Source: Macrostomum lignano (Eukaryota). Taken from it: DNA of 64,000 nucleotides. Where the stretch lies: assembly GCA_002269645.1 (NCBI GenBank), contig NIVC01001680.1, forward strand, positions 186,001 through 250,000, given 5' to 3'. The notes beneath the pieces are model-generated. The model was not told the DNA's origin and made no database searches. It was given only the letters and a program-made list of their open reading frames with translations. Made by a program: the position numbers and the translations under genes. The first letter of the stretch is position 1; every line of letters begins with the position of its first letter. Shown piece after piece: positions 31,977 to 61,495 of this stretch.

Positions 31977-34131
31977 TCACGGCTGCGACAAGCCGGCGCC
32001 GATGACGCACTTGCCGTTGGCGGCGCAGGCGAATCCGCGGGGGCAGCAGTGGGAGCCGCCGGAACAACAAACGCCCTAAAGGTTGAGAAACGATTATAAT
32101 ACAATATCAGATACCAGTAGTTTTGAAACATTACTCTATATAAGCTACCAAGGAACTTACGTCAGAATGGCTGCAACACTTGGGACTGCCGGAGTCAGTA
32201 ATGCAGCAAGTAGACTTGCTGCCGCAGTTAAGGCCCGCAGCGCAAGCCACCAAGCGCCTCTGTGCACCGAACATAGAAAAGTGAGCTGAGCCAGCAGACT
32301 GTGATGGATAATCAGCTGAGCGAGCAGGCTCAGTAGTGGCCACTTGGTCAACCTCCGACACAGGAGCCATGCACTGGTACGTCTTTGGGTCGCACACAAG
32401 GCCGTACTTGCAGCACAGCACTGAGCCGGAGTAGAACGTGCAACAGCTGGACAACTTAGCACGGCTAGCAATGGAACCCGACTTGGAGCAGGTACCAGCA
32501 GACACATCGCACTTGTAGCCGTTGGGACAGCAGTGGACTCCGTCACTGCAGCATGTGGCCTTCTCCAATGGACAGCAGCCATACTGACCTGACTGAAGCT
32601 TGCAGCACGTCGATCCGTCTGGGCACTGGCTTTGACCGTCGGGGCACACTACGGCGTCGGTCTTGGTCTTGGTCTTGGTGAGAGCGTGGACAATGCCTCC
32701 TTTGGAGCAGGTACCAGCAGACACATCGCACTTGTAGCCGTTGGGGCAGCAGTGGACTCCGTCACTGCAGCATGTGGCCTTCTCCAATGGACAGCAGCCA
32801 TACTGACCTGACTGAAGCTTGCAGCACGTCGATCCGTCTGGGCACTGGCTCTGACCGTCGGGGCACACTACGGCGTCGGTCTTGGTCTTGGTCTTGGTGA
32901 GAGCGTGGACAATGCCTCCTTTGGAGCAGGTACCAGCAGACACATCGCACTTGTAGCCATTGGGACAACAGTGGACTCCGTCACTGCAGCATGTGGCCTT
33001 CTCCAATGGACAGCAGCCATACTGACCTGACTGAAGCTTGCAGCACGTCGATCCGTCTGGGCACTGGCTCTGACCGTCGGGGCACACTACGGCGTCGGTC
33101 TTGGTCTTGGTCTTGGTGAGAGCGTGGACAATGCCTCCTTTGGAGCAGGTACCAGCAGACACATCGCACTTGTAGCCATTGGGACAACAGTGGACTCCGT
33201 CCCTGCAGCATGTGGCCTTCTCCAATGGACAGCAGCCATACTGACCTGACTGAAGCTTGCAGCACGTCGATCCGTCTGGGCACTGGCTCTGACCGTCGGG
33301 GCACACTACGGCGTCGGTCTTGGTCTTGGTCTTGGTGAGAGCGTGGACAATGCCTCCTTTGGAGCAGGTACCAGCAGACACATCGCACTTGTAGCCATTG
33401 GGACAACAGTGGACTCCGTCACTGCAGCATGTGGCCTTCTCCAATGGACAGCAGCCATACTGACCTGACTGAAGCTTGCAGCACGTCGATCCGTCTGGGC
33501 ACTGGCTCTGACCGTCGGGGCACACTACGGCGTCGGTCTTGGTCTTGGTCTTGGTGAGAGCGTGGACAATGCCTCCTTTGGAGCAGGTACCAGCAGACAC
33601 ATCGCACTTGTAGCCATTGGGACAACAGTGGACTCCGTCCCTGCAGCATGTGGCCTTCTCCAATGGACAGCAGCCATACTGACCTGACTGAAGCTTGCAG
33701 CACGTCGATCCGTCTGGGCACTGACTCTGACTGTCGGGGCACACTACGGCGTTGACCTCTTTGTCTTGCTTAACTATGCAAGTTCCATCTTTAATATTGC
33801 ATTGGTGTCCGAATGGGCAGCAAGTTAATTTATCAACACAGCAGGTTCCATTTTTGTATGGACAACAGCCTTCTTGCCCGGTGCTTAGAGAACACTTGCT
33901 CTCTCCGTTAGAACATCTATTACTGTGTGAAGTCGATGACTTCAGTGTTGGTAGTTGCAATGGTTGAGATCTTTTGATGGCAGGGATCTTTTTAAAGATC
34001 GGGATCGTGTCAGGCAATTCGTCATCAAAAAGAGGTCGTCGAATTGGTTTGTAGAGAAGGTCATGGGAAAGAACTTCGCTAGTAGCAAGAACACTTGCAA
34101 AAAGAAGTGAAAGAAGAAGACGACCGGGCAT
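31977..34131 (-). CDS. GRN: Progranulin / granulin precursor
   Basis: Signal peptide MPGRLLLSLLFASVLA; six 73-aa units CPDGQSQCPDGSTCC..GCCP..TCC..HCCP..C..C. Exon 32161-34131 plus last exon 31977-32075 (GVCCSGGSHCCPRGFAC). Confidence 0.92.
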
Positions 34132-35259
34132 GGTAGCCCTTAAAATCGAATTTTCAAAAAAGGGATCAAATAAAAATAAAAATACGAGTAGCTTGTGCAG
34201 ACGACAGGCGACTTCTTTTTTGTGTCTTTTAACGCACAATTACAAATAAGATTTTATCATGTAGATACATCTTGAATTCAACCTAAACACCCATTTTGAA
34301 TTAACGCAATTAGAAACTGGGATTATTAACAAAATTTTGTTGTCAGCAACCTAAGTTTATTTTTAGTAAAATTTGAAAGTTTTTACGCATGATTTTTTTA
34401 ATTTATAATTTTTTCATTAAAGACAGCACTAGATAAACATGTATTTCTGGCTATGATATTATTGTCGTTAGCAGCATGATGCCACATAGTGGTTAGGTGG
34501 AGGTTTGTATCAATTTCAATTAGGTATTTTAATTCTGCGTCATAAAACTTTATCCATTTTAGCTATACTTCTATACTAATTCTACGTCCTAATAAACGCT
34601 AAGAAGTAAGAATCAGTTGAAAAATGAGACAGTAATTTAAATAACTGTACTGTTCTGCAGGATAGGGTCCAATGTTCTGACTTATGCCTACTAAAGCCAA
34701 ACCCAAACCAAAAGCTAAAGCTTAACGCCTTGATTTATGTTTACAAAGTTTTTTGTTTTTTTAAATAATTATTATTTTGACATGTCATAATTTATAATTA
34801 GTAAGATAAAATTCAGAATTTAAGACACTTGTAATTGTAAATGCAGAGAGGCGTTATTTTATTTAAAACAGCTAGCAGAGCAGAGAGAAGTAACAAATCT
34901 AAGCCTAAGGTGGTGGTGGTGGTTTGCTTGTATGATATGGCATATGGTATGGTAGGCCACTAGGCCTATAGAATATAGAATAGACACTTATTTGGACTAT
35001 CAATATGTGAATGTGCAGAAATTTCCTTTCAAAAATTCCAGAAAAATTTATCATCATAGCCTATAGCCTAGGCCTACATATACCTGTACTGTAGGCCTAG
35101 CTGTAGGCATTCCTTTAATCTAAATATACTAAATCTCTAAGGTTTGTATGCTTGAATGTCCATAACACTCTAGAGCTTGCAATTTAACACTAGGTCTATA
35201 ATAGGCCCTATACTTATCTTGACCTAGGGCCTAGTCATTGAAATTAGTTGGACCTAGGC

Positions 35260-43593: not shown

Positions 43594-44487
<894 letters not shown>

Positions 44488-44495
44488 AACAAAAA

Positions 44496-44906
44496 ATGAC
44501 ACACGTTACACATGTGCAAAATATAAATGAGTATCAGGTAGGAGATCCAATTGAATACCGAGGTGAGGGACTTTTTGATTTGGTTGGAACAGCAGCAAAT
44601 TTTGTTAAAGACAATATGGGGCTTATAGGACAAGCTGGCTCTGCAGCAGGCTCTATAACAAATGCTGTAAAAGGAGGAATTGAAGCAGCTAGAGCGGCAG
44701 AAGAACTAAAGAAATTGAGAGATTTTAACGATACCCTCTCACAGATAAAAGCAATAAAAGATTTGAAATTAGCACAGGAAGCAACCCAAGCCGCACAACC
44801 AACAGAAACCCCCACGAAAAGCGCACCAATAAGTAATAAAGATATTCAGGATTTTAATAAAATGTTAAATACTATTAAAGGTGGAAAAGGATTAAAGAAA
44901 TTTTAA
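44496..44906 (+). CDS. Small putative virion core/membrane-active protein
   Basis: 136 aa with GEGLFDLV amphipathic segment and GGKG motif; function inferred only. Confidence 0.6.
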   Translation: MTHVTHVQNINEYQVGDPIEYRGEGLFDLVGTAANFVKDNMGLIGQAGSAAGSITNAVKGGIEAARAAEELKKLRDFNDTLSQIKAIKDLKLAQEATQAAQPTETPTKSAPISNKDIQDFNKMLNTIKGGKGLKKF

Positions 44907-44916
44907 CAATATAAAA

Positions 44917-45912
44917 ATGGGCTCAGTTAATGATGATGAAAACCGGTTATATTTTATAGGAGAAATTGTAGATACCTTAAATCTTGATGATAATAAGCAA
45001 ACCCACACAATGTTAAAAAGATTGGATCGATTAGGTAAAAAGTTTGACTACGACATCGATACATTTAAACTCGCAGCAAAATATGCACAAGAAGGAAGGC
45101 CAATATCCTTTAAGAATCGCGGCAGAAATTATAGGTTAACCGACTCCGATGTGAAATTTTTAATGGAGACTCACACTAAAAAGGACGGCGGATTACTACC
45201 CATTCTACCGCTTCTTTTAGGACTTGGCGCAGCTGGAGCAGTCGGTTTAGCCGGAAAAAGAATTCATGATAATGTAAAACAGCTAGGAGAGTTAAGAGCG
45301 AAACAGGGGGGAATCTTGCCCCTTGCAGCTTTGCTCCCAATAATTTTTGCAGGAATTGGAGCAGCTGGAGGAGTTGCTGGCGGAGCAGCTGGAATTGCAA
45401 AAGCAGTAAATGACAAAAAAGCTGCGGACGAAAAAGCTAAAAGAGAGGCCGAATTTCAAAGACAGCAAATAACGCAGGACGCACAATTTAAACAGAAACT
45501 TATTGATACCATTAATAGTAGTTCAGCAACAGCAGAGCAAAAAAGAAATGCAGAAGCTAGGTTATCAGCTGGAAAAGGTTTACTCTTGCAAGGATCAAAT
45601 CATGGCAATGGTTTACTTTTACAAGGAACAACCCAAGGAAGCGGAGTTGTCGCAGATAAATTACATGAATTTGGTCAAACTTTAGAAAAAACGGGTGAGA
45701 AAGCTAAAGGATTTTTTGACAATATTGGGGCTAATTTTAGGCCAGCAGTTCAGAAGATTTTTACTAAATTAGGAAAAGATTTTAACATAATTGAAAAGCA
45801 TGATGGAAGCGGATTATATCTCGAAATGAGACCAAAAGCAGGTTCAGGAATTTTCTTAAATTCAAACGTTATGGGCAATGGATTGCTGTTACCAAAAGCA
45901 GATCTCGAATAG
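44917..45912 (+). CDS. Core protein with adenovirus pX(mu)-like GG-[IL]LP hydrophobic motifs and GxG-L repeats
   Basis: KDGGLLPILPLLLGLG, KQGGILPLAALLPIIFAGIGA; GKGLLL, GNGLLL, GSGLYL, GSGIFL, GNGLLL. Confidence 0.65.
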   Translation: MGSVNDDENRLYFIGEIVDTLNLDDNKQTHTMLKRLDRLGKKFDYDIDTFKLAAKYAQEGRPISFKNRGRNYRLTDSDVKFLMETHTKKDGGLLPILPLLLGLGAAGAVGLAGKRIHDNVKQLGELRAKQGGILPLAALLPIIFAGIGAAGGVAGGAAGIAKAVNDKKAADEKAKREAEFQRQQITQDAQFKQKLIDTINSSSATAEQKRNAEARLSAGKGLLLQGSNHGNGLLLQGTTQGSGVVADKLHEFGQTLEKTGEKAKGFFDNIGANFRPAVQKIFTKLGKDFNIIEKHDGSGLYLEMRPKAGSGIFLNSNVMGNGLLLPKADLE

Positions 45913-45995
45913 GCTCCTGGGGGAGGGTCTGGACACCAAAAACGCAAAATTAAAAAATCAATAATTCAAACATTATATAAATTATATTCTATAAA

Positions 45996-48900
45996 ATGGA
46001 ACAAAGATTGACCCCAGATCAGATTCGACAACTTCTTGCAAATGAGCGCCAACAGTTCAATCGATTACAAAGACAGATTGAACAAATTGAACAGCGCCAA
46101 AGACAACAACGCCGCCAAAGAGCAAGAGAAAGACAGAGAGAAAGGCAGAGAGAAAGAGAAATACAAGACCAACAAATAAATGCATTAGCAAATAATATAA
46201 GGGCAGAATATGAAATGAAGCGATTAATAGAAAAGGCTGAATATGAAAAAAGAATAGCAGAATTAGAAAAAAACCAAAAGAAACCCACACGTCGGAAACC
46301 TCGGAATAAATCGGATGAAAAACCATTAGATGAGTTTATTAGGGTTTATCGATTTGAACCAATGCAGAATGTCCTAGATTTTATTGAAACCCAGCTTTCA
46401 AACGGATATGCTGTTGAAATTACTAATGCGAGGGTACAATATTTTTATAATAAAACCGGAGATGATCGTGAAGAGATTAATCAATACTTAGCAACATTTT
46501 ATAATATAAGCCAATTTCAAGCTTGGTTTAAGCATTTGGTAGAAAATTACGACATGAATTTAAGTGTGTTTTCTGGAAGACTTAAAATGACACCAAACGA
46601 AATTACACTTAAACACGAAAGGTCAAAGCAGGGTATGGGAACAAATGTCATGTGTGAAATTGTAGAGTATAAAGATGAGTACTGTTACATACCTAGTGAT
46701 GGAAATTGTTTCTACAAGTGTGTTCAGTTTATTTATGGTGATAAAGCCCCATCCAAAGACGAATATGGTGCTTGGTTGTTCGACTCAAGAACCCAAAGAG
46801 GTTTAATGACAAATTCAAGAATTGGAAGATTCAACGAATATTTTAATCTTAATATAGGGCTGTACAACACCAAAAATCGTGGCATTGAACCAAAGTTTCA
46901 AAGAGGGATTCACCACGATTGGTTATTAATAAATTATTTCCACACACCCGATTACCACATTGGGCATTATTGTCTTATATCAAATAAACAACGAGGAATC
47001 GCCCTCGAACGGATAAAAGACAATTATAAAGTTGTATATAAAAACCCAACGCTCGAAAATGTTAAGGAGCTAAAAATGTTCAACACACCCACAAACCCCA
47101 ATAAATCAAACGTATATATATTTGATTTTGAAACATATTTAAATTATAATCAACAAGCATGTCCGTATGCGGTTGGTCTTTTAAACTATAACGACTTTTC
47201 TAATAAGTGTAATGAAACCCCAGAGACAATAAAGAAACTAACTAAGATCTTGATATCAGATCGCGGTTGTGATTTTCAAACAGATGGAGATAAGGTTGAT
47301 CGTACCGAAGGTTCGCGGCCTAAGACCGATTGTGTTAGAAAAATGTTTAAATACCTTGGTACAGTTAGGTCAAAAAAGATTGTTTTGATCGCGCATAACT
47401 CATCCCGCTTTGATTCATACATACCACTATTTTGTAATATAAAACCAATTAAAATTCTCAAAACCCCAAGAGGAATATTATCAATAACTTTTGTAAACGA
47501 TTACGCGTCAAAAGAGGTTAGTGCATTTATAAACAAAGATAAGAAGAAGAATCATAAGGATTCGAAACAAACCATTACGATGCTTTGTTCATATCAACAC
47601 GCATCAATGAGTTTAAAAAAGTTTTGCTCATCAATGACAATTAGAGAGGATTTGCGAAAGACCTCAATGGTTCACGACATTACCGAACACGACTATTTAG
47701 AGCGCATGGACGAATGGTATGAATATTTACAATTTGATCTTATTTCTTTATGCGCCTGTATTCATAAGTATAATGAAATAGCATATGAAATTGGAGGAAT
47801 GACAATGTTCGATACTCTTACCTGTTCAAGTTTAACATTAAAATGTTGGTTTAAAGATTTTGTTAGAGTTGAAGACAAAATGAAACAATATCTAAAGACA
47901 GAAGAAAAAACTAATTACATTAAAAAAGTTGAAGAAATAATATCTCCGTTGAAAATAGAGGATTATTTTGACTTAAGCAAACTTGAAAAAGCAAAATACC
48001 AAACACTATTAAGAAAAGAATTTTCAGTTCACTCTCATACCAATCCTTATATACGAAGGTTTATGCGGGACGCAGTCAAAGGAGGCAGGGTATTTGCACT
48101 AATAAATAAATATGAAAGCGACTGTTTTCAAACAATTGTAGACGTTGTAAAAGCCCATTTAAAAACACCAACAAGCGACCCATGCGAGGTTATATCAACT
48201 TATCTCAAAAGCGATATGGAAGAAAAAAAGAAAATCGCAATTAAATTAAAAAACAATTGGGTACCGTATCAGATTGTTTAATGAATTTTGATGGAGTTTC
48301 GTTGTACCCATCTGCCATGTCTGATAAGGATAGTGAATATCCAAGAGCAGAAACAGCAAGAGTTTTTGATATAAGCGAGGAAAAAGATTTCTTGGCACAA
48401 TTTAATTCACAAACCTTTCGACCAAAAACAGCGGTTTTAAAGATTATGTATGAGAATCCTAACACCGTTTTTCTTCAACATCTCCCATCGAAAGATAAAG
48501 AGAAATTTTATAATCCGGAAACAAAAGCAAACGAAACAAAAACATTAAATAGGTTTAGAAACGGAAAAGTAATTGACACCTTATGTTCCGTAGATATACA
48601 AGAAATTGTAAGAATGGGTGGAAAAATATTAAAGATATATAGTGGAATTGTATATGAAAAAAATTACGATTTCTCTCCGTTTCAGAATTATATTACAAAT
48701 CTTTTTGAAATGAGAAAAGTATTTAAAAAAGAAAATAACGAGGCAGGTTCTGAATTGGTAAAAACACTATTAAATTCATTATATGGCAAAACAGTTCAAA
48801 GAGACATTACTTTCACAACACATCTCTGGAATTTGCAAACATTAAAAACCGAATACGATGACACAATCAAATCATATGAGAAAATATGTGACGATTTATA

Positions 48901-49615
48901 TTATGTTGAAAAAAATAAAGACACGCAAGAATATGTAGATGAGGAAGAGGAAAGTCCTATAACAAGCCTTTGTCCAGCACAATTAGGAATATTTATCTTA
49001 GCTCATTCAAGAAGGATCATGAATAATTTTATTACCTCTATAGAGGGCTCAAAGACTCCAGAAATTTATTACGGCGATACAGATTCGTTATATATACATA
49101 AAAAACATTGGGACACATTAAATAAAAACGGGCATGTTGGAAATAACTTAAGTCAAGGAAAAAATGATTATGGAGAGGGTGGAATTATATTCGGTTATTT
49201 TATCGCTCCTAAAATTAAATATTGTCTTTTATTGAAAGACGATTTTATTATGGAAGAGAAAAAAACATTTAAAGGATGTGCAAACGATAAGATTAATTTT
49301 GCATCGTTTAAAACTTTATATGATGGACAGTCAATAAAAGTAAATAATAATGCTCCGTGGAAACGATCATTTGAAGGTGGTATAACAATTCCTCAAAGCG
49401 GATCAACAATATCAAAAACATATACCTCTACGATAAACACATTTAAAAGAGAAAAACCGGATAAAAACGGAGTTATGAAACCATTCTTTAAAAACTATTT
49501 TGATGACAAACCACAGCATGAACATTCAATTGAATATTATAACAGTTTACTATTTGACGTTGACTATAATTGTTTTGAGTTCGATATTGATGAATTAGCA
49601 CTTGAAAAAAACTAA
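45996..49615 (+). CDS. polB: Protein-primed DNA polymerase B (one frameshift at ~48250)
   Basis: FDFET (ExoI), AHNSSRFD (ExoII), YLQFD (ExoIII), KGGR, DGVSLYPSAM, KTLLNSLYGK, YGDTDS. Confidence 0.95.
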
Positions 49616-49861
49616 AGCATGTAATTGTTTAAGCATAATATCCATTTCGATTTCATATAATATTGAAGGCCAATTTTCCTCGCAGTCGTCAGGGTAACTT
49701 AAACAATCCTTTATTTTTTTCCTAAGTTTTTTTATTTTTCTAACCAATCTATCTATTTCAATTTCAATTACTATTTCAGCATAATTAATTGCAGATTTAA
49801 TAAAACGTTTTCTTTTATCCATTTTCATATCGGATGGGAAACATATCGTCCCCATACTCAT
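49595..49861 (-). CDS. Hypothetical protein
   Basis: 88-aa ORF packed against the polB end; no motif recognised. Confidence 0.45.
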   Translation of the reverse strand: MSMGTICFPSDMKMDKRKRFIKSAINYAEIVIEIEIDRLVRKIKKLRKKIKDCLSYPDDCEENWPSILYEIEMDIMLKQLHALVFFKC

Positions 49862-49953
49862 GATATTTCTGAGATATAATTATATTTATTTTTTTATTAA
49901 TATCATTAAGTTCACGCTCTTTAGTGATAAGGATTTTTATTGTCTCCATTTTC

Positions 49954-50301
49954 TTATAAAAAATTTAAACTTATTCGGGGGTCATCCTCCCAAACAGCCG
50001 CCAATTTTACAGTCCTATCACTCTTTTTATTATTTGTTTGTTTTAGTTTAAATTGCAATCCACCCTCGTTGCAGTATTTCATAACAAACGCTTTAGGTTT
50101 ATTAATAACTAAAACAGGAAAATTTTTAACATCATCTCCGCTTAGACATAAAATTTTTTGCCCATCTAATTGTAAAAATATTGATTGAAGCCCAATAAAT
50201 TTAACCTGTCTCAAACATATAATATTATATTCTTTATTCTCCAACATATTGGGTGTGAGATAATTAATCACATTAGAATCGGTTTTGAACCAGCTCTCCA
50301 T
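49954..50301 (-). CDS. Hypothetical protein (probable start MESWFK)
   Basis: Normal composition within the packed viral gene array. Confidence 0.5.
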   Translation of the reverse strand: MESWFKTDSNVINYLTPNMLENKEYNIICLRQVKFIGLQSIFLQLDGQKILCLSGDDVKNFPVLVINKPKAFVMKYCNEGGLQFKLKQTNNKKSDRTVKLAAVWEDDPRISLNFL

Positions 50302-50328
50302 TTTTAATCTAAAAAAATAACAAAAAAA

Positions 50329-50841
50329 ATGAAAGACATTTATGTTTGTAATAAATGTAATGTGACTATGCACAGAGGGCAAACAGCAAACGGAGATATA
50401 TATCATATGTGTTATTCATGTTCTAAAATATATCAATTTGAAAAAACAAAAAAGATTGAAAACTCATATTACTATTTTAAAAACACAATTTTAAGAAATC
50501 TTACAAGAGACATTTCTGATCCAATTTTAATTCCCGGAAATAATGTTTATTTATATAATAACTTTTTCCATTTAAATAAAGGAAAGGGATTAAGTTCGAA
50601 AGACTCCGAAAGGATTTTAATTTTAGTTGGATATTATTTCAATTTTCTTATTCGAGAGAATACAAAGTTTATAAGGATAGGTAACATACCTAACGAAATG
50701 TTACTGAAAAAGTCATTGGAATTTTTATGTATTGATAAAAAATTTAAACCTAGGATCAGAAGAGAGTTACCACTTTGGGAAGAATATATAACATATGCAT
50801 TAAATAAATTAAACAACATTAAGTTCTACCGCACTTCCTGA
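50329..50841 (+). CDS. Zn-ribbon-containing hypothetical protein
   Basis: CNKC..CYSC near the N-terminus. Confidence 0.55.
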   Translation: MKDIYVCNKCNVTMHRGQTANGDIYHMCYSCSKIYQFEKTKKIENSYYYFKNTILRNLTRDISDPILIPGNNVYLYNNFFHLNKGKGLSSKDSERILILVGYYFNFLIRENTKFIRIGNIPNEMLLKKSLEFLCIDKKFKPRIRRELPLWEEYITYALNKLNNIKFYRTS

Positions 50842-51465
50842 CCGTGGGCTTTGTGCCCCAGTAGCAATAGTTTCAGGTTCGTAAATACCTAATGTTTCTA
50901 TAGGTGGAGCTTTGGGTTTGTCCAAACGTAATTCTTTTAATTCCATATCGGTAAAAGTTTCAACATCTAAAATTCTATTTCTATCTTTTAAATATTTTTC
51001 ATATAATTCAACCGCGGTTGATAATTCATGAATCGTTATCTCTCCGTCATCCAATATTTTTTGCACATATAAATATAATTGATTTTTATATTGTTTTGCA
51101 ACATCTCTTAAAGATTTATATTTTTCCTTTCTTTTTTTAAGATATAATTTAATTGCTAAAAGTATTGATAAGTTCCTGATCAATTCAAAACCTGATATTG
51201 AGCCAATTGAAATACCTAAAAATAATTGAGATAAATTAAGAGTTGGAATAGATTGTAAAATACCTAAAACGATTACACATAACATTGATAAGCTTCCAAA
51301 TCCAATATTGAAAAAGTCCATATTTCTTATATGGTTTGAAACTCTTCTTACTTTTTTAGCATATAAATCATAATCATAGTTAATACGATCAACATTACTT
51401 AACATCTGACCTTTACGTTGGTTGAACCGGTCGCGTTCCCATTTATCTGCTTCAGATACCGACAT
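50809..51465 (-). CDS. Two-TM-helix protein of the type common in Polintons
   Basis: Two hydrophobic segments followed by KEKYKSLRDVA..QKILDDGEITIHEL (cf. SKALxDxxISxxEF pattern). Confidence 0.55.
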   Translation of the reverse strand: MSVSEADKWERDRFNQRKGQMLSNVDRINYDYDLYAKKVRRVSNHIRNMDFFNIGFGSLSMLCVIVLGILQSIPTLNLSQLFLGISIGSISGFELIRNLSILLAIKLYLKKRKEKYKSLRDVAKQYKNQLYLYVQKILDDGEITIHELSTAVELYEKYLKDRNRILDVETFTDMELKELRLDKPKAPPIETLGIYEPETIATGAQSPRSGSAVELNVV

Positions 51466-51794
51466 TCTCGTCTATTTTTAATAGCACCAAAATGAATTCC
51501 CCGCGCTCTTTGGGGATTTGTCCCGAGCTCAATAGGTATTGTATTGGAGTGATTCTTTCTTTTTTCTCCCATTTAAATCCTATTTTCCAAAACTCTTGAA
51601 GTATAATATGATTTTTTAATAACTTAATTAATTCTTGAAGCTTCTTATTATCCTGAACATTTACAGTACTAAATAAAAATTTGGTATGAGATTTGAATGT
51701 TTTTATATTTGATTCTTGTTTAGGAATAGGAATAATAACATTATTTTGCCGCATCGATGGAGTTCTACTAAAAGCCATTTTATATAGAAATATT

Positions 51795-53838
51795 TTATAT
51801 TTGAGTAGGAGGTTTTTCCAAATAAGCAGTAGAGGGAAAAACATAACCAAACGACGTACTACCACATACAACTGCACCACGAATAAAATGTGCAGCATCC
51901 GCTCCACCAGTTCGAGCACCAAAACCCATAAGGGTTCCAGATTTATCTAAAGTTCCCCAAGTTCCACTATCATATGTGAAAACGTTCTGTCCAATGAGGG
52001 TAAAAGAATCACCAGCAACATTGTATGACTGTAATCGGTACCAAACCCTTTGATTTAAAATATTAACTTCAAATAAATGCCAATTGCCGTTATCAATATT
52101 AGCATAGGCTACAGTTTGATCTGCGCCAGTATTAACATCCGCGCGGCTTGATCCGTCTGATTTTTTATTACTCCAAACAACTCCAAACCTATCAGTCCAC
52201 TCACTAGCAAACACTATCAATCCGGCGTCGGTTGATAATCCAGTTCCAAATTCCGATGTTGGACGTTGGTGACAGTATGCATAAAACCAAACCGCATCTG
52301 CACCATCTCCTGTAGCATTAGCAACTCGGAAAAAGAAAGACGCAGATATATTTTGAAAATGTGTGAAATTGAATTGTAAAGCACCACTTACTCCAGAGTT
52401 TCACGAGTAATTCTAGCGCCGTTTTGATAATCGATATAAGAAGCATCGCTAATTAAAGAACCGACTGGATATATATCTCCGGCGGTTGTTGGATTTTGAT
52501 ATCCAGACCAATTGCAAATTACTGGTTCGAACAAGGCCGCATCAATAGCAGGTATTCCATCCAATTTATTTTTATCGCTTCCAGACATTCTACCATTTGA
52601 TGTTGGAGTAGCTAGCTGATCTACGTACGCTCGCGGAACTGCAGAAAGTATTTGAGTTGGCCAATTAAGATCTTGAATTTCAACACGGTGTTCAAATAAT
52701 TGTATTTGACGAACCTCGATAGGTTGTGTACCGGTACCACCAGTTGGGAAGAATACGCTATAATATTTCCAAAAATTAGTCGTTAAATTAGATAGAGCAA
52801 ATGATGTTGCTTGAACTGGTGATCCCGACGTAGTTAATGTTGTCCATGAATCGGTAGCAACATTTTTTGCGCGAACCGACCACCCCGAGGGTATCTCAAT
52901 TGTTTCACTGCCTGTAATTCTTAATTCAAATATTCTTCTATTATAACCTAAAAATTCAAATTGAATTTCCATATTGGTTGTGGTTCCGGTATTTGGTGAC
53001 CATTGTGTCGCAAGGCTTCCATCTCCAACTCGAAAAGCTGTGTTGCCATTTTCAGATGCTGTAAGAACAACATCAGGATTTGAAGTATTTGATGTAAGCG
53101 GCGTGGTAAAAATATCGGCGTCGGTTGCATTAGCTCGCTCGTTTACTTGGCCTAGAGTTATCGAGTCTGCGTTCTCTGTTCCAAATAATAAATTTGTTAA
53201 TTTAAAATTATTCATATTAATATTTCCACTACGAGTGGCAACTTGATTATCGACATAGTTCTTATCAACCACTGAATCACTAGTTGTAATTGAAACATTT
53301 ATAATTCGGTTGTTGCTCATATCTAGGTTTCCGGTTGCGGTGGTTTGAACATAACGTGAATCAGAATCAGTTCGAGAATAAGAATCAGTTACATCTCTTT
53401 TTAAATTTAATCCATTATCAACTTCGGTTTTGGTATAAGAATCGGCTACGTTCCGTTTCAAATTTAATGAATTATCAACTTCGGTTTTGGTATAAGAATC
53501 GGCTGTATTGCGTTTTAAATTTAATGAATTATCAACTTCGGTTTTGGTATAGGAATCGGCTGTATTGCGTTTTAAATTTAATGAATTATCAACTTCGGTT
53601 TTGGTATAGGAATCGGCTACGTTCCGTTTCAGATTTAGTGAATCATCTATTTGAGTTTTGTATAGGAATCTGCAACATTTCTTTTTAAATTTAGTTTAGT
53701 ATCAACTTCACTTTTTTTATAACCTTCATCTTCATTAATATATCGATTATCTCCAAATGTAACACTTATTCCACCAGATGTGCCACCACCACCACTACTT
53801 GTTGTTCCGTTCCATGAGGGTGTTCCAGAAAATAACAT
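51795..53838 (-). CDS. Fibre/tail-fibre-like adhesin (two frameshifts, ~680 aa restored)
   Basis: 19-aa repeats DSYTKTEVDNSLNLKRNVA; GNLDMSNNRIINV..KNYVD stalk motifs; discoidin-like block; ATPTSNGRMSGSDKNKLDGI; C-terminal ConA/LamG-like block (DNGNWHLFEV). Confidence 0.7.
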
Positions 53839-53848
53839 TTTTTACTGT

Positions 53849-54310
53849 CTATTTTATAGAGTCTAAAATCGTGCCATCGGCACGCATGCTTTGCATGATA
53901 CTAAATCTTCGGGTTTCCTTCGAGTTATTAATTTTATATAAAAAATACAACGCCGCTTGCCCGCAATAACTTTTATCAAATGTTTGAAATTGTTCGTGAT
54001 GATCTCCACATAAACGATTTTTAGTATGATTAAATTTGTCTTTTATTTCCTGTAACGGAGGAAGCGCGTATGAATCAAAAAAATAAACAAGTTTTGGTTT
54101 TGAATAAACTGCTGACCAATGAACACCGTTTTCTTTTGTTGTTTCAATATTAACAATGAAAGATCCATATTGTGGTAAGTCTTTGATCTCATCTCGCATA
54201 ACACATCTGAATGGTTTTATTTTTAACTGCCTCGCCCAATTTGTTAATTCGATATTGCTTGTTGTGTCCGTTCCATATCTTTGTTTAAAATCATCCCACG
54301 TCATGGTCAT
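53849..54310 (-). CDS. Adenain-like (C5) cysteine maturation protease
   Basis: NGVHWSAV (His), FFDSY (Asp), QTFDKSYCG (Gln/Cys). Confidence 0.92.
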   Translation of the reverse strand: MTMTWDDFKQRYGTDTTSNIELTNWARQLKIKPFRCVMRDEIKDLPQYGSFIVNIETTKENGVHWSAVYSKPKLVYFFDSYALPPLQEIKDKFNHTKNRLCGDHHEQFQTFDKSYCGQAALYFLYKINNSKETRRFSIMQSMRADGTILDSIK

Positions 54311-54531
54311 TTTATGTTCCTGAAAAACTCTTGGTTTTAGTTAGTTTCGTAGGTGTGGGTTTTAACAATTCCTTTCTTATTTTATCAGCTTGTAACTGCC
54401 TTAATTTTGCTAGTTCTAGTTCGTAATTATCTTCAGCTTTTTTAACTTTTTCTGATTGTTTTTTTATTAAATTATTATTATTATCGTGCTTTGCACGCGA
54501 ACATGTTGTTCGATTACCCATTTTTACAGTA

Positions 54532-55317
54532 CTAAACCTGTTTTATACGTAAAATTATTGTTATTGACTGCCCACCAAAACTTATTAATCTATCGCTTTC
54601 ATCTACAATCCTAATATAAATTGATTGAACATTATATTGATTTAATGGGTAATATATTGGGGTTTGGGGTGCAACAATCATTTTCTCTCCAATTGGAACA
54701 GCAAGAAATGGGATTGAATAAATAATTCCACGTTGAACCAAAACTCCGTTATCGTCTGTTATATAACCACCGTTTGAAATGTCGGTTGTTATATTAATTG
54801 TATTTACTCCACCCTCTATATTTCCAACTGTATCACCGGTGCTTGATGTGGTAACTATTCGGGAATTAAATCCAAGTATGGTTCTGAGTGAATTTGCAAT
54901 TGTGAAATCAACCTGATATCCGGATCCTAGTGATAGTGTGAATCTGCCAGACGGTAAATCAACACCTATAACAATTGCTCCTGCTACCCAATCACCATTA
55001 GTTGTTAATTCTCCTTCTATATAAGCATTCAAATCAGTATAGCTATACGCTCCTGGGTTAACGCTAAATGTTGTCCAATTGGCTCCGGAATCTTTAGAAT
55101 ATCTAAATTGATTATTTGTTGCATTAATTAATTGAGGCATGTTGAAAACCGAAAATAGTATTAAACCTATTTGATAACTTAGGCTTTGATCAAGTTGTAA
55201 TGGATCGCGCAATTGAATCCGTTGCTCGCTGGTTGTCATTATAAACTGTAATGTTGTACTAAATTTTGAATTAGTTCGATCTACCAATTGTTTTATAGTA
55301 TTTAAATTTGTAGTCAT
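54532..55317 (-). CDS. Minor capsid protein (penton, single jelly roll)
   Basis: INATNNQFRY, PGAYSYTDLN, LRTILGF, PIYYPL..IRIVDESDRLISFGG..IILRI are typical of Polinton pentons. Confidence 0.85.
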   Translation of the reverse strand: MTTNLNTIKQLVDRTNSKFSTTLQFIMTTSEQRIQLRDPLQLDQSLSYQIGLILFSVFNMPQLINATNNQFRYSKDSGANWTTFSVNPGAYSYTDLNAYIEGELTTNGDWVAGAIVIGVDLPSGRFTLSLGSGYQVDFTIANSLRTILGFNSRIVTTSSTGDTVGNIEGGVNTINITTDISNGGYITDDNGVLVQRGIIYSIPFLAVPIGEKMIVAPQTPIYYPLNQYNVQSIYIRIVDESDRLISFGGQSITIILRIKQV

Positions 55318-55414
55318 TTTTATAGTGGGAAATTAATGGACGAAGTCCGCGTTCCGAAGGAACGATCGAACGAAGTTCGCGACCCTATGGGCGATCGTAC
55401 CGAAGGTACGCGTG

Positions 55415-56213
55415 CTATGCACGATCCTCTTCTTCCTCATTATCTTCTTTTATCAAATTTGTTAAAATTCTATGTTTCCTTTCTAACCTCGGATTGATAT
55501 AAATATGTTTGTATTGGCTATCATCCCAAATTTTTTTACACATACTTTTAAATGGTTTTGCATCCAATCCGGGATTAAATCTAGCGTGTATATTTTGTAA
55601 ATCATAGTTATCTAAATCAAACATTACACAACAACTTGCATTCTTTTTTATAATCGATTCTAATTCTCTAAAGGATTGAGTAAGATAAAAAGCTCCAATT
55701 CCATCTCCTCTACCACTAACAAAAATTTCCTTTTGCAATTCTTGATCACCGTCATTAATACAATCATCAAAAATAATTAGTGTTTTATCATGTTTTGGAA
55801 TTTGATCATAGGCTAATCGGGTTGATACTCTAACAGTTGGGGCTCGATCGGACGAAGTCCGCGACCCTTCGGGGCGATCGGTGATGTTTTCTGGCTGTTG
55901 TGCCATTGTTTTACATAAATCCTCAATGTCTGCTAGATTAAATCGCGGTTCGTCATCATCCTCATATTGCTCATATGCTCTTAACATTCTAAACAAGACA
56001 TCTTTTTTTAATTTGTTTTTTAATCCATGTTTAAGAAATTCATAATATTTTATTCTAGGTTTTAGTATAAATTATTAAATTATTATAGTCTAGCATTCCA
56101 TCGGTTGTTAACAGGTCATAAACAAAGTGTGTTTTTCCTTTACCTGATCCTCCGATTACTAAACAAAGAAAAGGATCATTTGGAAATATTTTATTGTGTT
56201 TTGCCTTTACCAT
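55415..56213 (-). CDS. A32/FtsK-like packaging ATPase (frameshift at ~56065)
   Basis: MVKAKHNKIFPNDPFLCLVIGGSGKGKT (Walker A), LIIFDDC (Walker B), GRGDGIGAFYLTQS. Confidence 0.9.
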
Positions 56214-57731
56214 TTTTAAAGAAATAATTTAAATAGGCGCGACGGTCGGAGACCTGCGACACTAAAGTGGCGTCCCGAACAATCGTGCCATCAGCTTTAG
56301 CAATTGACATATATTCCTCTAGAAACAATACGTGGGCGTCAAGTGCCTGATTACCGGTTTTATTAATCTCTAACATATAATTAAGTCCAATATTGGCTAC
56401 GTTTTCTTTCTGTGCCGTTAGATCATAAACAACCACTGGATGAATGTTTAGAAACTCTGTGGGTGTGTACTGAGGGACGGCATACGCTTCATTTTTAGGC
56501 ATAATCTTGATAATATTTTATAAAATCATTAACATTATTATTTGCTATATTTAAATTTAGGGGGTCTTTAACCGGATAATATTGATCATCAACCTGCAGG
56601 CGGATATTCTGAACATTAAACTCGTTAATAGCTGCAGCCGCATTGTCTGTTGCGGTGGCTGCTTGTTCTGCTATGGCACCGGATTGAAGCCAATATAAAT
56701 CCCCATTTGCTCTTTTACTCCTTCTATTTGTTATCTTAAACCAAACAAAAATATATCTCACCCGACGTTTTGATGTCAGTATTTGCCACTGGAATGAATC
56801 CTGGTTATTATTAATGGTTCGCATAAAATGTCGACGATTCAAATAAAATATTTCCTGATCATGCGTTAACTGATTATCGATGTGTTTTAAAAGTGGGGCT
56901 GTTACCTCAATAGTTGGTACGACTAATTGAATTGAATCTATACGAACTGCTATATCGGTTGAAATTGAGGTTCCATAAAGTATCCTAGGCTGATATCCAC
57001 CAGATATTTGCAACTGTATCCCAAATTTTAATCCTTTCCATACCCGATTTGGTGAGAAAAACCCAAATAGTGGAAAGATTGAAAAGTCCTGCTCATATGC
57101 TGTTGCTGTGGTTAAAACCGCGACTGGGAATTTATTCTGACGATCTATAAAACCAGTATTAATATCTTTTGTATTAGTCATAGTGGTTACAACTGGAACT
57201 ATGTTTGTATTAAGGTAAACAATTAGCGCTGCAGTATCTGCACCGGCTGCGTTTTGTACATTAGGGAAAACTACTGCTTGACCGTTACCTTTATCCGGCA
57301 TCCACCCAACATTATCACCAACTTGTTTTGATAAATAAGTATAATTTAAATGTTTCAAAACTCCATTAATCTCTGCGGGGTTTGATGATGTCTCAACCTC
57401 AGCACCATTAACAGTTAGTTGAGCTTGGGAAAAACATTTATAAAACCAATCATTTTCTATTATTATTCCGGATCGATCTGCGATATCTCCGGCTGCAAGA
57501 GCAGTTCCATCATTTCTAGTATACAACCATCTAACGCGGAAAAACATTTTTCATATCCAATATAGTGTTGGTTGCGCCGATGTCAAAAGTTACCGTTCCA
57601 GTAGTAAAGTTATTTGAATTATCACTTGTTGGTAGGGTATAATTTAAATCTCTTGCTCTGACCTCATTAATATACTGTCGGTGCTTTTTGAAATGAAATT
57701 TATCACTCCACATAGTTTTTGTTTCAGCCAT
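56191..57731 (-). CDS. Double-jelly-roll major capsid protein (two frameshifts)
   Basis: Three consecutive ORFs (57531-57731, 56495-57547, 56191-56502) total ~510 aa; FSQAQLTVNGAEVE, RVRYIFVWF, LQVDDQYYP, HPVVVYDLTAQKE. Confidence 0.85.
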
Positions 57732-57765
57732 TTTTTTAAGTTAAAAAAGTTTTTTATGTTAAAAA

Positions 57766-58434
57766 ATGAGTCAATTTATGGACGTTGATGGAGAGTTAGC
57801 GATTTATAAAGAGAAGCAAAGATATTCTGATTTTGTTAGAAATTTACAAAAAAGAAAGTTAGGAATACAATTAGCTGGCGAAAGATTTGCTGCTCCTTTT
57901 GTTAATCCTATTACTGGGAAAATTAGTGAACTAGAAAAAACAGATAAAGATCTTCTGGAAAAAATTGCTAAAAATACGAGCCAAAAGAGGATGAAATTTT
58001 GGATGAGCCGCCTGCTTATGAGACTGATCAAGCAATATTTAGAGTTGCAGAAATTAGACGTGAAGAGATTAGGGGTGGAGTTGAACAATATCCGAGATGC
58101 ACCAACTAGTATTGCTGTGACAGATTTAGGTGGTGGTAATTATCGAATTGGTAACGTAGTTAAAGATCGAAATGAACTATATAGAGAATTGGGCGGAGCA
58201 TTTAATATTATTACGAACCCTAGGGTAAAATTTAACCCCGATTTATATACTAGGGATGAATTAATAAGTGCTAGAATTTTTTATGATGAGTTAGGAGGAG
58301 CTGTTAAAAATACCAGCTTGTATAAATGGATTGTTAATTCTATAAATAACAAACCAGCTGTTGGTGATGGATTTAAAACACCGCGAAAACTTGTTTTAGC
58401 TGCTGCGAAAGCTGCTGGACATACTGGAGTTTAA
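57766..58434 (+). CDS. Hypothetical Polinton protein (possibly PZ-like)
   Basis: 222 aa with DLYTRDEL and VGDGF motifs; assignment weak. Confidence 0.45.
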   Translation: MSQFMDVDGELAIYKEKQRYSDFVRNLQKRKLGIQLAGERFAAPFVNPITGKISELEKTDKDLLEKIAKNTSQKRMKFWMSRLLMRLIKQYLELQKLDVKRLGVELNNIRDAPTSIAVTDLGGGNYRIGNVVKDRNELYRELGGAFNIITNPRVKFNPDLYTRDELISARIFYDELGGAVKNTSLYKWIVNSINNKPAVGDGFKTPRKLVLAAAKAAGHTGV

Positions 58435-58461
58435 TTAATTGTTAAATTTATTTTTTATAAA

Positions 58462-59029
58462 ATGGATGAAACAAAAATTTGTACTACGTGTAAAATTGAG
58501 AAACCGATGACTAAAGAATTTTTTTGTTGGAGAAATGACACAAAAAAATTTAAAAATCTTTGTCGATCTTGTGAGAAAGTTAAATGCACTATGTGGAGAA
58601 TAAACAATAAAGATAAATGTAATAAATATGCAAAAAATAAATATCGCACTGATGAAAATTTCAAAAATATTAGTCTAATTAGAGCTAAAATAACTTGGGC
58701 ATTGAGAACTTTTCATGACAAACATTATATCTCATATCTTGGTTGCACAAAAGAATTCTTTTTGATTGGTTAAATTTCACAAGAAATTATTATGTTCCAA
58801 AAAATTATACTGGAAAGTTAGATATTGATCATTTCATTCCCGCTTCTTCATTTATTACAAAGACGATGATCAGATTAAAAAGTCTGAAAATTGGAGAAAT
58901 AAAAGATACTTAACTAGCGTAGATAATAACTATAAAAAAGTTAAACAACCAACAATTGAAGAATTTGCGAAACAATTGGTGCTATCATGTATTTTTAAGG
59001 CTATTAAAAATGAACCAAATAGTGTTTGA
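58462..59029 (+). CDS. Free-standing HNH-type endonuclease (frameshifted)
   Basis: N-terminal CTTC..CRSC, YLGCTKEFF(L)DW, DIDHFIPASSF, ENWRN..LTSVDNNYKK, as in NCLDV/phage HNH proteins. Confidence 0.75.
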
Positions 59030-59720
59030 AGGAGGATTTTTAGACTTACAAAAAGGATTAACAAGCTTACCACCAATCTTTACTACTGGGAGGTATACGG
59101 GTGAGCTACACCTACCATCAATGAACTTCACAGGTTAACCCGTGGCCTGAGTGAGGAAGCAATGTCCTTGCTAGTCACTATTTGTGGCGACATCTCCAAA
59201 TTGCGTGAAACCGTCATACAGCTTCAAGTACCACTTCAAGTGAGAAATCTTTTGAAGGAACAGAGGTAACTCCTCTTCCCAAAGAATAAAAAAGCTTGAA
59301 GACACGGTGGCAATGCGCAGCCAAGCTCCTAAGTATTTTAAATATAAGGAGAAGGTTCAGAGAGCAGACGGAGATGGGCGGTAATTATCGCCGCTTAAGG
59401 TGTGCTCCAGCCTCATTCGAAAGATTGAGGTAAACAGCCGGGGACTAGACTGGATTTAAGATTAAATCCTGACAATACTCCAAAATCTGATTCAATTCAA
59501 TAAATGGGATTGATTGGTTAGCATACTATCACGACTTAGCATATAGAGATGCTGACAAGAACCCGCCGAGGAAGCATTAAGATTAAAACATGAAGCCGAT
59601 CAAAAAATGATTCAAGGATTAGATAACTTGCAGGGATTATCGGTAGGTCAAAATTAACTAGGTGGATGGTTAAAAAGATCTTGCAGTCTAAAGTTAAATT
59701 TGGTTTGGGAATTAATTATA
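59010..59720 (+). CDS. Parvovirus-VP1u-like phospholipase A2 split by a group I intron
   Basis: Exon 1 59010-59135 ends ELHLPSMNFTG; exon 2 from 59438 reads PGTRLDLRL..(P)INGIDWLAYYHDLAY..KHEADQKM..KFGLG once single-base frameshifts are corrected. Confidence 0.85.
59136..59437 (+). ncRNA. Group I intron ribozyme, subgroup IC1 (302 nt, no ORF)
   Basis: 5' exon ends in U and pairs with IGS GCCTG (59145-49); intron ends in G. P3 CATCTCC 59191-97/GGAGATG 59370-76; P AAATTGCGTGAAA; Q AATGCGCAGCCAAG 59312-25; P7 GAGCA 59362-66/TGCTC 59403-07; P5abc, P6, P8 and P9 all pair. Confidence 0.92.
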
Positions 59721-59745
59721 ATCAACATGGAAATAATTGTGTTGA

Positions 59746-60083
59746 GTGTTTACTATTAAGTGGCGTGGGTTAAGTTCTGATGAGGCAAAGATTCTTCATA
59801 AAGAATATCGAAAACCTAAATTTTATAGAAAAATCATGAACTTCAAAAAGAATGAAATTTGGTATGCTGATTTAATGTCGATGCCGAAAGATCTGGGATA
59901 TAAATATATCTTAACCATATTAGATGGTTTTACTCGATACGCGTGGGCTGTTCCTTTAAATCCAAAAAAGGAGAGGATGTTGCTGCTGCTTTTAGAAGTC
60001 TTGGAGAAAAAGCGAAAGTTTGTGTGTTGACGAAGGAAAAGAATTTTACAATCCTACATGTATAAATTGTATCATTTTGAAAA
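59746..60083 (+). CDS. Retroviral-like (rve) integrase, truncated by the assembly gap
   Basis: ILHKEYRK..EIWYADLMSM..GYKYILTILDGFTRYAWAVPL..VDEGKEFYN. Confidence 0.9.
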
Positions 60084-60835
60084 NNNNNNNNNNNNNNNNN
60101 NNNNNNNNNNNNNNNNNNNNNNNNNNNNNNNNNNNNNNNNNNNNNNNNNNNNNNNNNNNNNNNNNNNNNNNNNNNNNNNNNNNNNNNNNNNNNNNNNNNN
60201 NNNNNNNNNNNNNNNNNNNNNNNNNNNNNNNNNNNNNNNNNNNNNNNNNNNNNNNNNNNNNNNNNNNNNNNNNNNNNNNNNNNNNNNNNNNNNNNNNNNN
60301 NNNNNNNNNNNNNNNNNNNNNNNNNNNNNNNNNNNNNNNNNNNNNNNNNNNNNNNNNNNNNNNNNNNNNNNNNNNNNNNNNNNNNNNNNNNNNNNNNNNN
60401 NNNNNNNNNNNNNNNNNNNNNNNNNNNNNNNNNNNNNNNNNNNNNNNNNNNNNNNNNNNNNNNNNNNNNNNNNNNNNNNNNNNNNNNNNNNNNNNNNNNN
60501 NNNNNNNNNNNNNNNNNNNNNNNNNNNNNNNNNNNNNNNNNNNNNNNNNNNNNNNNNNNNNNNNNNNNNNNNNNNNNNNNNNNNNNNNNNNNNNNNNNNN
60601 NNNNNNNNNNNNNNNNNNNNNNNNNNNNNNNNNNNNNNNNNNNNNNNNNNNNNNNNNNNNNNNNNNNNNNNNNNNNNNNNNNNNNNNNNNNNNNNNNNNN
60701 NNNNNNNNNNNNNNNNNNNNNNNNNNNNNNNNNNNNNNNNNNNNNNNNNNNNNNNNNNNNNNNNNNNNNNNNNNNNNNNNNNNNNNNNNNNNNNNNNNNN
60801 NNNNNNNNNNNNNNNNNNNNNNNNNNNNNNNNNNN
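60084..60835. other. Assembly gap (752 N)
   Basis: Run of N. Confidence 1.
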
Positions 60836-61172
60836 TAATAATTCATTTTTTAAATATTTTTTTCACATAAAAATTTCACTTTCATTCTCTGAATCACTGG
60901 TTTCATATGAACTATTTGTTGATTCGGAATCTGTTGATCTAACCTCCCAATCATCCGAATTTAAATAATCTCCAAGTTGAAATATTAACTCACCCTCTTG
61001 TTCTAATCATACATCTCATCTAGCTCTAATGGATAAAGTTTTAGGTCGTGCTTGTCGTCATATTTTAAATAAACTTCATCAATTATTCCATTCAAAATAT
61101 GTTGTTTTATTATCTCTGCATTTTTAGCAACAGTCTCAAAAGTATCACTAACAGAAAAGGTGTAAACTCGGT

Positions 61173-61495
61173 TCATTTTTTATAACAGAAAAAGACCCTT
61201 CGCGCCTGCGGCGCGTGCGACGGGTTCTAGAAAGTTTGTGTGTGTTGGAGAGAGTTGGAAGCGTTGACGATACAAAATACCCAGCAAACCATTCTCACCA
61301 TTGCAAACAATTTAACCCTTTATCAGTGTGAAATGGCCTGTTTGACCGAAATGAAGCGAGGATGAGCGAAGCGAGTTGAGCGAAGTGAAGACGAGCGAAA
61401 ATGAAGGGAAACAGGCCATTTCACACTGATAAAGGGTTAAATTGTTTGCAATGGTGAGAATGGTTTGCTGGGTATTTTGTATGGTATATACTACT
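61173..61495 (-). repeat. Right TIR containing a perfect 74-bp hairpin stem
   Basis: 61270-61343 is the exact reverse complement of 61409-61482; 65-nt purine-rich loop. Confidence 0.95.

Follow-up and report, generated by a model that had tools for sequence, protein, structure and literature searches.

The question that this locus raises is why a virus-like transposon in an animal genome carries, within a conserved protein motif, an insert that opens with a stop codon. In the window (the whole stretch of 64,000 nucleotides that was analysed), positions 59136-59437 (+) are a group I intron of IC1-like architecture. A covariance-model search matched 59126-59429 (+) to Rfam RF00028 with 66.6 bits (E 2.8e-16; gathering threshold 50), and this is the sole gathering-level Rfam match within the window. 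The first-pass annotation had described an IC1 group I intron inside a gene of an animal Polinton and had named the Rfam model as a check; the match confirms the intron, and the integration and the host are taken up below. The insert is 302 nt long, starts with an in-frame TAA and ends in an omega-G. Its GC content is 45% versus 31-35% in the flanks, and 99 of 100 shuffled sequences fold less well than the intron region (z -2.59). Together with its sibling copies in the genome it forms an ORF-less family that we call family A. A spliceosomal intron was considered and rejected on inspection: splicing from the GT two bases before the 5' site to the terminal AG would not keep the frame, and AG is missing from the ends of most siblings.

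All helices from P1 to P9 can be placed on the plus strand of the window intron, in agreement with the full Tetrahymena-like set proposed initially. P1 (59131-59149) pairs exon bases 59131-59135 with a guide at 59145-59149 and has a U.G pair at the 5' splice site; the core of this guide is identical in families A and B. The P1 loop contains the P10 guide, and the pairing of P10 to exon 2 that had been noted is borne out at -7.5 kcal/mol. P2 and P2.1 follow (59150-59188); it is in P2.1 that family B, described below, carries a nuclease ORF. The P4-P5-P5abc-P6 scaffold (59202-59351), delimited by placement and covariation, has an A-rich bulge, a GAAA loop L5b and a receptor-like J6a/6b, the names receptor and A-rich bulge being those of the Tetrahymena intron. 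P7 (59360-59366 with 59403-59408) is assigned by covariation, and its two strands enclose P8 together with the 3' strand of P3 (59360-59408 in all). P7 has the covariant form GAGAGCA/UGCUCC, which retains the G-C pair of the guanosine site as had been claimed; it is unchanged in all 53 distinct family A places, and three of its pairs are exchanged on both sides between families A and B. Over 16 distinct cores of these two families (62 pairs), 96.2% of 991 pair cells are standard, versus at most 51% in controls with slid alignments. Both sides have changed in 10 of the 62 pairs (in P3, P4, P5a, P5b, P5c, P6a, P7 and P9), a count that represents few events since most changes separate two lineages and since P8, poorly aligned, was omitted. 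Insertions among the copies are restricted to intron loops. Subgroup IC1 is defined by P2.1, P5abc, an A-rich bulge, a GAAA loop L5b and its receptor; all of these are present, and IC1-like refers here to these peripheral features, the model searched being the general RF00028 one. Because the intron contains in-frame stops, expression of the gene would require self-splicing, and we infer that it occurs. None of the listed runs is RNA by record; joints skipping the intron were absent from the contigs of four runs (two guessed to be RNA and two others), which is uninformative either way.

The gene split by the intron is a PLA2-integrase fusion. Exon 1 (59010-59135, +) comprises 42 codons from Met, and its last codon, the whole Gly codon ending at 59135, belongs to the PLA2 calcium loop; the frame is taken up again at 59438 with Pro, and the intron thus interrupts the Gly|Pro codon pair of the calcium-loop motif. 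This junction, the one originally proposed, is fixed by P0001, a homologue without the intron that has 72% identity to exon 2, and by intronless alleles of the same genome (L093 and L094). The frame does resume at 59438 as had been stated, but in the window copy exon 2 (59438-60083, +) meets a stop after 21 codons, has additional frameshifts and enters a 752-base assembly gap of N (60084-60835). The frameshift represents either decay or an assembly error. As judged from sibling frames and profiles, exon 2 contains the C-terminal half of PLA2 fused to an rve integrase (PF00665, E 1e-6; PF08398, weak), and it is open for 382 codons in 17 of 30 sibling loci. The initial description of a PLA2 gene was thus correct for that domain but not in taking it to stand alone. 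The fusion is frequent among 120 listed homologues, many of which have both domains precomputed. Since the intron splits the fusion gene, it gates the integrase as well as PLA2. Parvovirus-like PLA2 domains are among the features reported for adintoviruses (PMC8502044), and the PLA2 domain of the fusion is a putative enzyme. Both PLA2 halves are under purifying selection in the intron-plus copies (pN/pS 0.04-0.28).

The gene belongs to a 17.4-kb Polinton/Maverick element (44136-61495) with AGTAGT...ACTACT ends, recognised from its terminal inverted repeats and gene content. The left repeat (44136-44490, +) is 84% identical over 357 columns to the right arm with which it pairs (61171-61495, -); the latter harbours an internal 77-nt inverted duplication at 61267-61485, 99% complementary. 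Profile searches found both a protein-primed PolB and an rve integrase in the element, and the second of the ORFs at the polymerase region (45996-49615, +) matches PF03175 with E 1.4e-16. A virion module at 53849-57547 (-), assigned by position and motif, comprises an adenain-like protease, a penton-like protein, a packaging ATPase with weak Pox_A32 and terminase matches, and a putative, split major capsid protein. The protease, penton-like and capsid names were read from translations, that of the capsid by position only; no family or PDB match was obtained for the putative double-jelly-roll capsid protein, and the single-sequence model of a homologue reached a pLDDT of 32.6. A fibre-like ORF at 52388-53461 (-) resembles F5/8-type carbohydrate-binding domains (Atlas score 0.85), which we consider as a lead only.

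The intron of the window is one of many in this genome. Family A gave 203 first-look candidates, with 40 scored at 94-100%; copies of the element as a whole are spread over well over 100 contigs. The family A intron is present in all 30 loci picked by exon 1 and measures 303 or 333 nt in the siblings. Family B (28 scored loci, 72-91 bits with RF00028) sits at the same junction with introns of 836-895 nt (26 parsed), a canonical P7, omega-G in 26 of 26 and an ORF that runs from P2.1 into the intron core. Family C, with 23 near-full-length matches, has P2, P2.1 and P5abc in common with family A and a different core; RF00028 matched one of its loci below threshold (L097, 42.9 bits) and gave no match in L098, L099 and L102. 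These four loci look chimeric, with a family A periphery on a core that we take to be IE-like. Their exon 2 appears to start with Ala-Gly-Leu, so that the ligated junction would be without Gly-Pro. Three further matches, 74-75% to family C (G000:C2521:124751-124987, C114:209579-209809 and C45:485775-486005), may form a fourth intron family. The survey of related PLA2 genes that the first-pass annotation had suggested also revealed intronless alleles: 31 of 150 scored PLA2 loci span the junction unbroken, and intron-plus and intron-minus alleles thus coexist in one genome. Several copies contain double-hairpin insertions of 30-33 nt (two stems, about -10 to -11 kcal/mol) of several sequence types, in intron loops (L033, L034, L046, L054 and L061) and in coding DNA (L100 and L101, near the exon 1 start). 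There are 46 matches in the loci, duplicates included, and the main type was not found in the window copy; these insertions look like tiny mobile elements of these Polintons.

A restriction-type nuclease appears to accompany the introns, in two states. Neither this nuclease nor the purge of its presumed site, described below, had been noticed in the first-pass annotation. The P2.1 ORF of family B matches PF09553 (RE_Eco47II) with 27.3 bits in one copy and 25.2 in another (cut-off 25.9), and an approximately 60% identical homologue is free-standing in some copies of families A and C, where it immediately precedes exon 1. In total, 102 Eco47II-like nuclease matches, pieces included, were found in the genome. 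The free-standing protein (167 aa) was modelled with a pLDDT of 88.9 and has no extra DNA-binding domain in the model. Its top Foldseek match is EcoO109I (PDB 1wtd; E 5.7e-4, TM 0.62), a modest one at 13-14% identity, and the model points to a PD-(D/E)xK fold with a catalytic-type motif. GGNCC has been assigned to Eco47II homologues (PMC10305163), and EcoO109I is reported to cleave RG^GNCCY (PMC3089450). By analogy with these enzymes, the nuclease is expected to cut GGNCC. An Eco47II-like nuclease lies within 1.6 kb at 33 of 119 intron-type loci versus none of the 31 junction-spanning loci, although only three of the latter are near family A in sequence and the like-for-like exclusion is 0 of 3 (p 0.56). 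No methylase was detected among the element ORFs scanned, with a small doubt left by the 752-base gap and by unassigned ORFs. The distant nuclease homologue P0176 forms a fusion with a C5 cytosine methylase; such a methylase usually acts as the protective partner, and the element is without one.

Every Gly-Pro codon pair spells GGNCC. This word was a prior prediction, because the nuclease lead preceded the word count. The element contains no GGNCC in 16,608 called bases, versus an order-3 Markov mean of 10.3, and none of 200 simulations gave zero; among 1024 gapped four-letter words it is the most depleted. The unmasked host DNA of the window is hardly depleted (82 observed versus 98.7 expected). 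The purge extends to the proteins: Gly-Pro is absent from the 4197 residues of the element ORFs, where 7.9 were expected. In each of the four intronless loci that were fetched, the 401-481 bases read contain a single GGNCC, which lies at the intron site. Among outside PLA2-integrases, Gly-Pro outside the loop occurs 0 times versus 25.8 expected in hits 1-30, twice versus 22.9 in hits 31-60 and 24 times versus 36.5 in hits 61-120, counts that come from related sequences and not from independent draws. In family B, 3 of 26 loci carry GGNCC in or after the gene. The loop Gly-Pro is replaced by Gly-Ala in the outside homologues P0010, P0014, P0020 and P0026, a possible protein-level escape from the GGNCC site. 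Other words are also rare in the element, namely CCNGG (6 versus 16 expected), to which no enzyme was assigned, and CANTG (32 versus 53), and only two Pro-Gly occur in the 4197 residues. The PLA2 motif Gly-Pro-Gly yields CCNGG as well as GGNCC, so that there may be a second nuclease.

We consider that the locus probably represents a selfish intron-nuclease system, with a GGNCC cutter, a lineage purged of its site, an intron breaking the one site imposed by a protein, and intronless relatives that are cut and converted. The Eco47II-like nuclease would cut GGNCC, and the lineage would have protected itself without a methylase by purging this word, even at the price of losing Gly-Pro from its proteins. 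The conserved Gly-Pro of the PLA2 loop would be the one site not easily lost; the intron would break it in the DNA, and splicing would restore it in the RNA. Because the intron breaks the loop site only in intron-plus copies, intronless relatives would be cut there, and repair from an intron-plus copy would spread the intron, and unrelated DNA in a co-infection would be cleaved in many places. Inside a purged genome, a five-base cutter could thus act as a site-specific homing endonuclease, and the window copy would be an ORF-less member that keeps its immunity. Since the host DNA keeps GGNCC, such a cutter should be toxic in the nucleus, and the model needs nuclease expression to be restricted, for example to virus production. 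The more complete version of this proposal is that a five-base restriction enzyme was turned into a homing endonuclease and a weapon, with no methylase, with GGNCC and Gly-Pro erased, and with the last site concealed by a ribozyme that actively splices itself, also in an omega-A form that has been successful. We consider this complete version as likely as not.

What could speak against the selfish system is the other gene found in the slot upstream of exon 1. In the window copy this slot (58462-59026, +) holds a broken, free-standing HNH / endonuclease VII-like gene, and elsewhere it holds another HNH-like gene or the Eco47II-like nuclease. The HNH-like type is the commoner neighbour (45 of 53 family A places versus 8 for the Eco47II-like type) and could be the homing enzyme. 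Homing would then be of the ordinary kind, an HNH-like or Eco47II-like protein reading a long site at the junction, and the purge would have been driven by an enzyme from elsewhere, for instance from the restriction system of a giant virus acting as helper. Long recognition sites are described for known homing enzymes, among them those of the PD-(D/E)xK type (PMC3943268), restriction-modification systems are reported to be carried by giant viruses (PMC12220804), and CCNGG is depleted as well as GGNCC. However, the purged word is precisely that predicted from the family and fold of the element's own nuclease, the short protein of 167 aa offers no additional domain for reading a long site, and HNH-like sequence is also present upstream of both intronless family A-type alleles that were read. 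We thus regard ordinary homing as unlikely. Still less likely, in our view, is that the nuclease serves mainly against a helper or competing virus, that the intron only shields the unavoidable Gly-Pro and that homing is incidental, a reading that overlaps with the selfish system and differs in emphasis. The total purge without a methylase among the element ORFs would fit such a weapon. An interference role has been proposed for the introns of Bodo saltans virus (PMC5871332), and the P4-P6 motif of the intron is common in giant-virus contigs. On the other hand, the intron itself has been invaded by the nuclease, a single site is shared by three intron families and chimeras, as is expected of a homing site, and no helper virus was found.

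The first-pass annotation had gone further and proposed that the intron controls the expression of a membrane-penetration enzyme. A domesticated ribozyme regulating the output of PLA2, and of the integrase, would make use of the in-frame stop at the first intron codon, which renders expression splicing-dependent, and an omega-A end could tune splicing down. This proposal is not supported by what was found: the gene encodes the integrase too, intronless alleles with open frames of 431-463 aa coexist in the same genome, and three families of different introns share the site, without any ligand- or condition-sensing element being seen. Because intronless alleles coexist with three intron families at one site, the pattern fits a mobile homing site and not a switch, and we hold regulation to be very improbable. 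The omega position bears on a further alternative, an unspliced, passive fossil, with the integrase made from an internal start or from intronless copies. The terminal omega-G reported initially is correct for the window copy, but 39 of 53 distinct family A places end in A and only 14 in G, with P7 unchanged. Omega-A ends may impair exon ligation; a bacterial omega-A intron, the Coxiella rRNA intron, splices slowly. These ends and the frameshifts of the window copy would suit a fossil. The standard pairing in 96.2% of pair cells, the ten pairs changed on both sides and the confinement of insertions to loops argue against it, as do the pN/pS values of the omega-A copies (0.12 for exon 1, 0.09 for the PLA2 part of exon 2 and 0.11 for the whole of exon 2), an argument weakened by recombination between copies. 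There is very little to recommend a fossil, even less than regulation.

Several observations place the element in animal chromosomes. The genome (764 Mb) contains 86 Wnt matches, and the contigs C506, C952 and C67 carry Wnt genes together with intron-bearing copies; the host is thus an animal. Exact 6-bp target-site duplications flank 7 of the 10 sibling copies with both ends, whereas the window copy matches at 4 of 6 bases. The stretch is present in 20 of 24 listed runs from seven studies of one organism (one run may be the source sample), and the four runs examined cover the intron. The integration into the host, which had been listed among the points to verify, is supported by the Wnt contigs and the exact duplications. 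That the element comes from a contaminating protist or a free virus can practically be dismissed: similar introns are reported from protist Polinton-like viruses (PMC12220804), and the window copy has an N gap and an inexact duplication, but the copies on well over 100 contigs, some of which also carry Wnt genes, the exact duplications of seven sibling pairs and the recurrence in runs of seven studies are against it. The host DNA of the window (1-44135) is rich in minisatellites with units of 18-54 bp, and the left end of the element adjoins an 18-bp array. This DNA also has a granulin-type ORF (32131-34239, -) with seven domains in one frame, built of 219-bp repeats about 98% identical.

Traces of similar introns exist outside this genome. 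Of 157 records of nuclease homologues from elsewhere that were screened, eight end in a translated intron core, and one protein, P0152, reads through the intron core to the same junction, its family being about 47% identical. The outside evidence for the intron rests on such protein tails and heads, because the scans of DNA context gave no intron: those of IMG/VR returned four distant integrase loci, none with an Rfam match, and nothing for the nuclease or P0001, and a metagenome scan returned two loci without an intron. The P4-P6 motif is common in giant-virus contigs and shared with at least 122 IMG/VR stretches, and the receptor-like motif is present in 70 of 80 fetched giant-virus loci. 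The likeness to the giant-virus introns is about 69-86% for core pieces only, and neither Eco47II nor a PLA2-integrase was found nearby in any of the 80 loci. A giant-virus source of the intron is plausible.

The closest known situation is that of protist Polinton-like viruses, in which group I introns have been reported (Rhodomonas lacustris cluster C3, Paulinella and Desmodesmus; PMC12220804). As far as that source describes them, these introns match RF00028, measure about 300-380 nt and interrupt protein genes of integrated Polinton-type elements, as here, but they come from only a few protist groups, the gene concerned is short, unannotated and situated upstream of the capsid gene, and no nuclease was assigned to them. 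The present introns differ by their animal host, the PLA2-integrase gene, the linked nuclease and the purge of its site. The account of Bodo saltans virus and other giant viruses describes introns that lie in conserved motifs of essential viral genes, those with a nuclease occurring next to others without an ORF, and it proposes an interference model (PMC5871332); these are free giant viruses of protists. With the Tetrahymena-type IC1 introns of nuclear rDNA our intron shares P2/P2.1, the P5abc scaffold and the G-C pair in P7; it differs in residing in a protein gene of an animal provirus and in its non-consensus P7 and frequent omega-A. Phages provide a parallel in collaborative homing and composite-intron formation (Zeng 2009; Bonocora and Shub 2009; as summarised in PMC11296320), where a free-standing nuclease stands beside an ORF-less intron and the same nuclease is found inside an intron. 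In the present case a single animal genome contains the two states, and the nuclease is similar to type II restriction enzymes with short sites. Compared with Eco47II and EcoO109I, it has the predicted PD-(D/E)xK fold, catalytic-type motif and GGNCC core, but its gene is intron-borne or intron-adjacent and no partner methylase was found in the element. Group I introns of animals are described as mostly mitochondrial and of subtype IB4, in placozoans, corals and sponges (PMC11835236), whereas those reported here are nuclear, proviral and IC1-like. In the literature searched, with subscription journals sparsely covered, we found no report of group I introns in animal Polintons or of restriction-type intron nucleases.

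According to the part of one review consulted here, nuclear group I introns occur only in rRNA genes of microbial eukaryotes (PMC3679873). Reviews limit nuclear group I introns to microbial rDNA, and those of animals mostly to mitochondria; a family with many copies in a nuclear provirus of an animal thus crosses this boundary, and the function of such introns in animal mRNA becomes testable. The link to the nuclease suggests that homing specificity could arise from a short-site enzyme through genome-wide purging of its site, and it suggests a reason for the presence of introns in unavoidable protein motifs. One nuclease that occurs in a single genome both as a separate gene and within introns would be a snapshot of the formation of a mobile intron. 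That such a nuclease would spare only purged DNA is a hint that these Polintons are still in competition as viruses, perhaps with a partner among the giant viruses. If the more complete version of the proposal holds, the introns would be functional group I introns in the nuclear genome of an animal, located outside rDNA and present in hundreds of copies.
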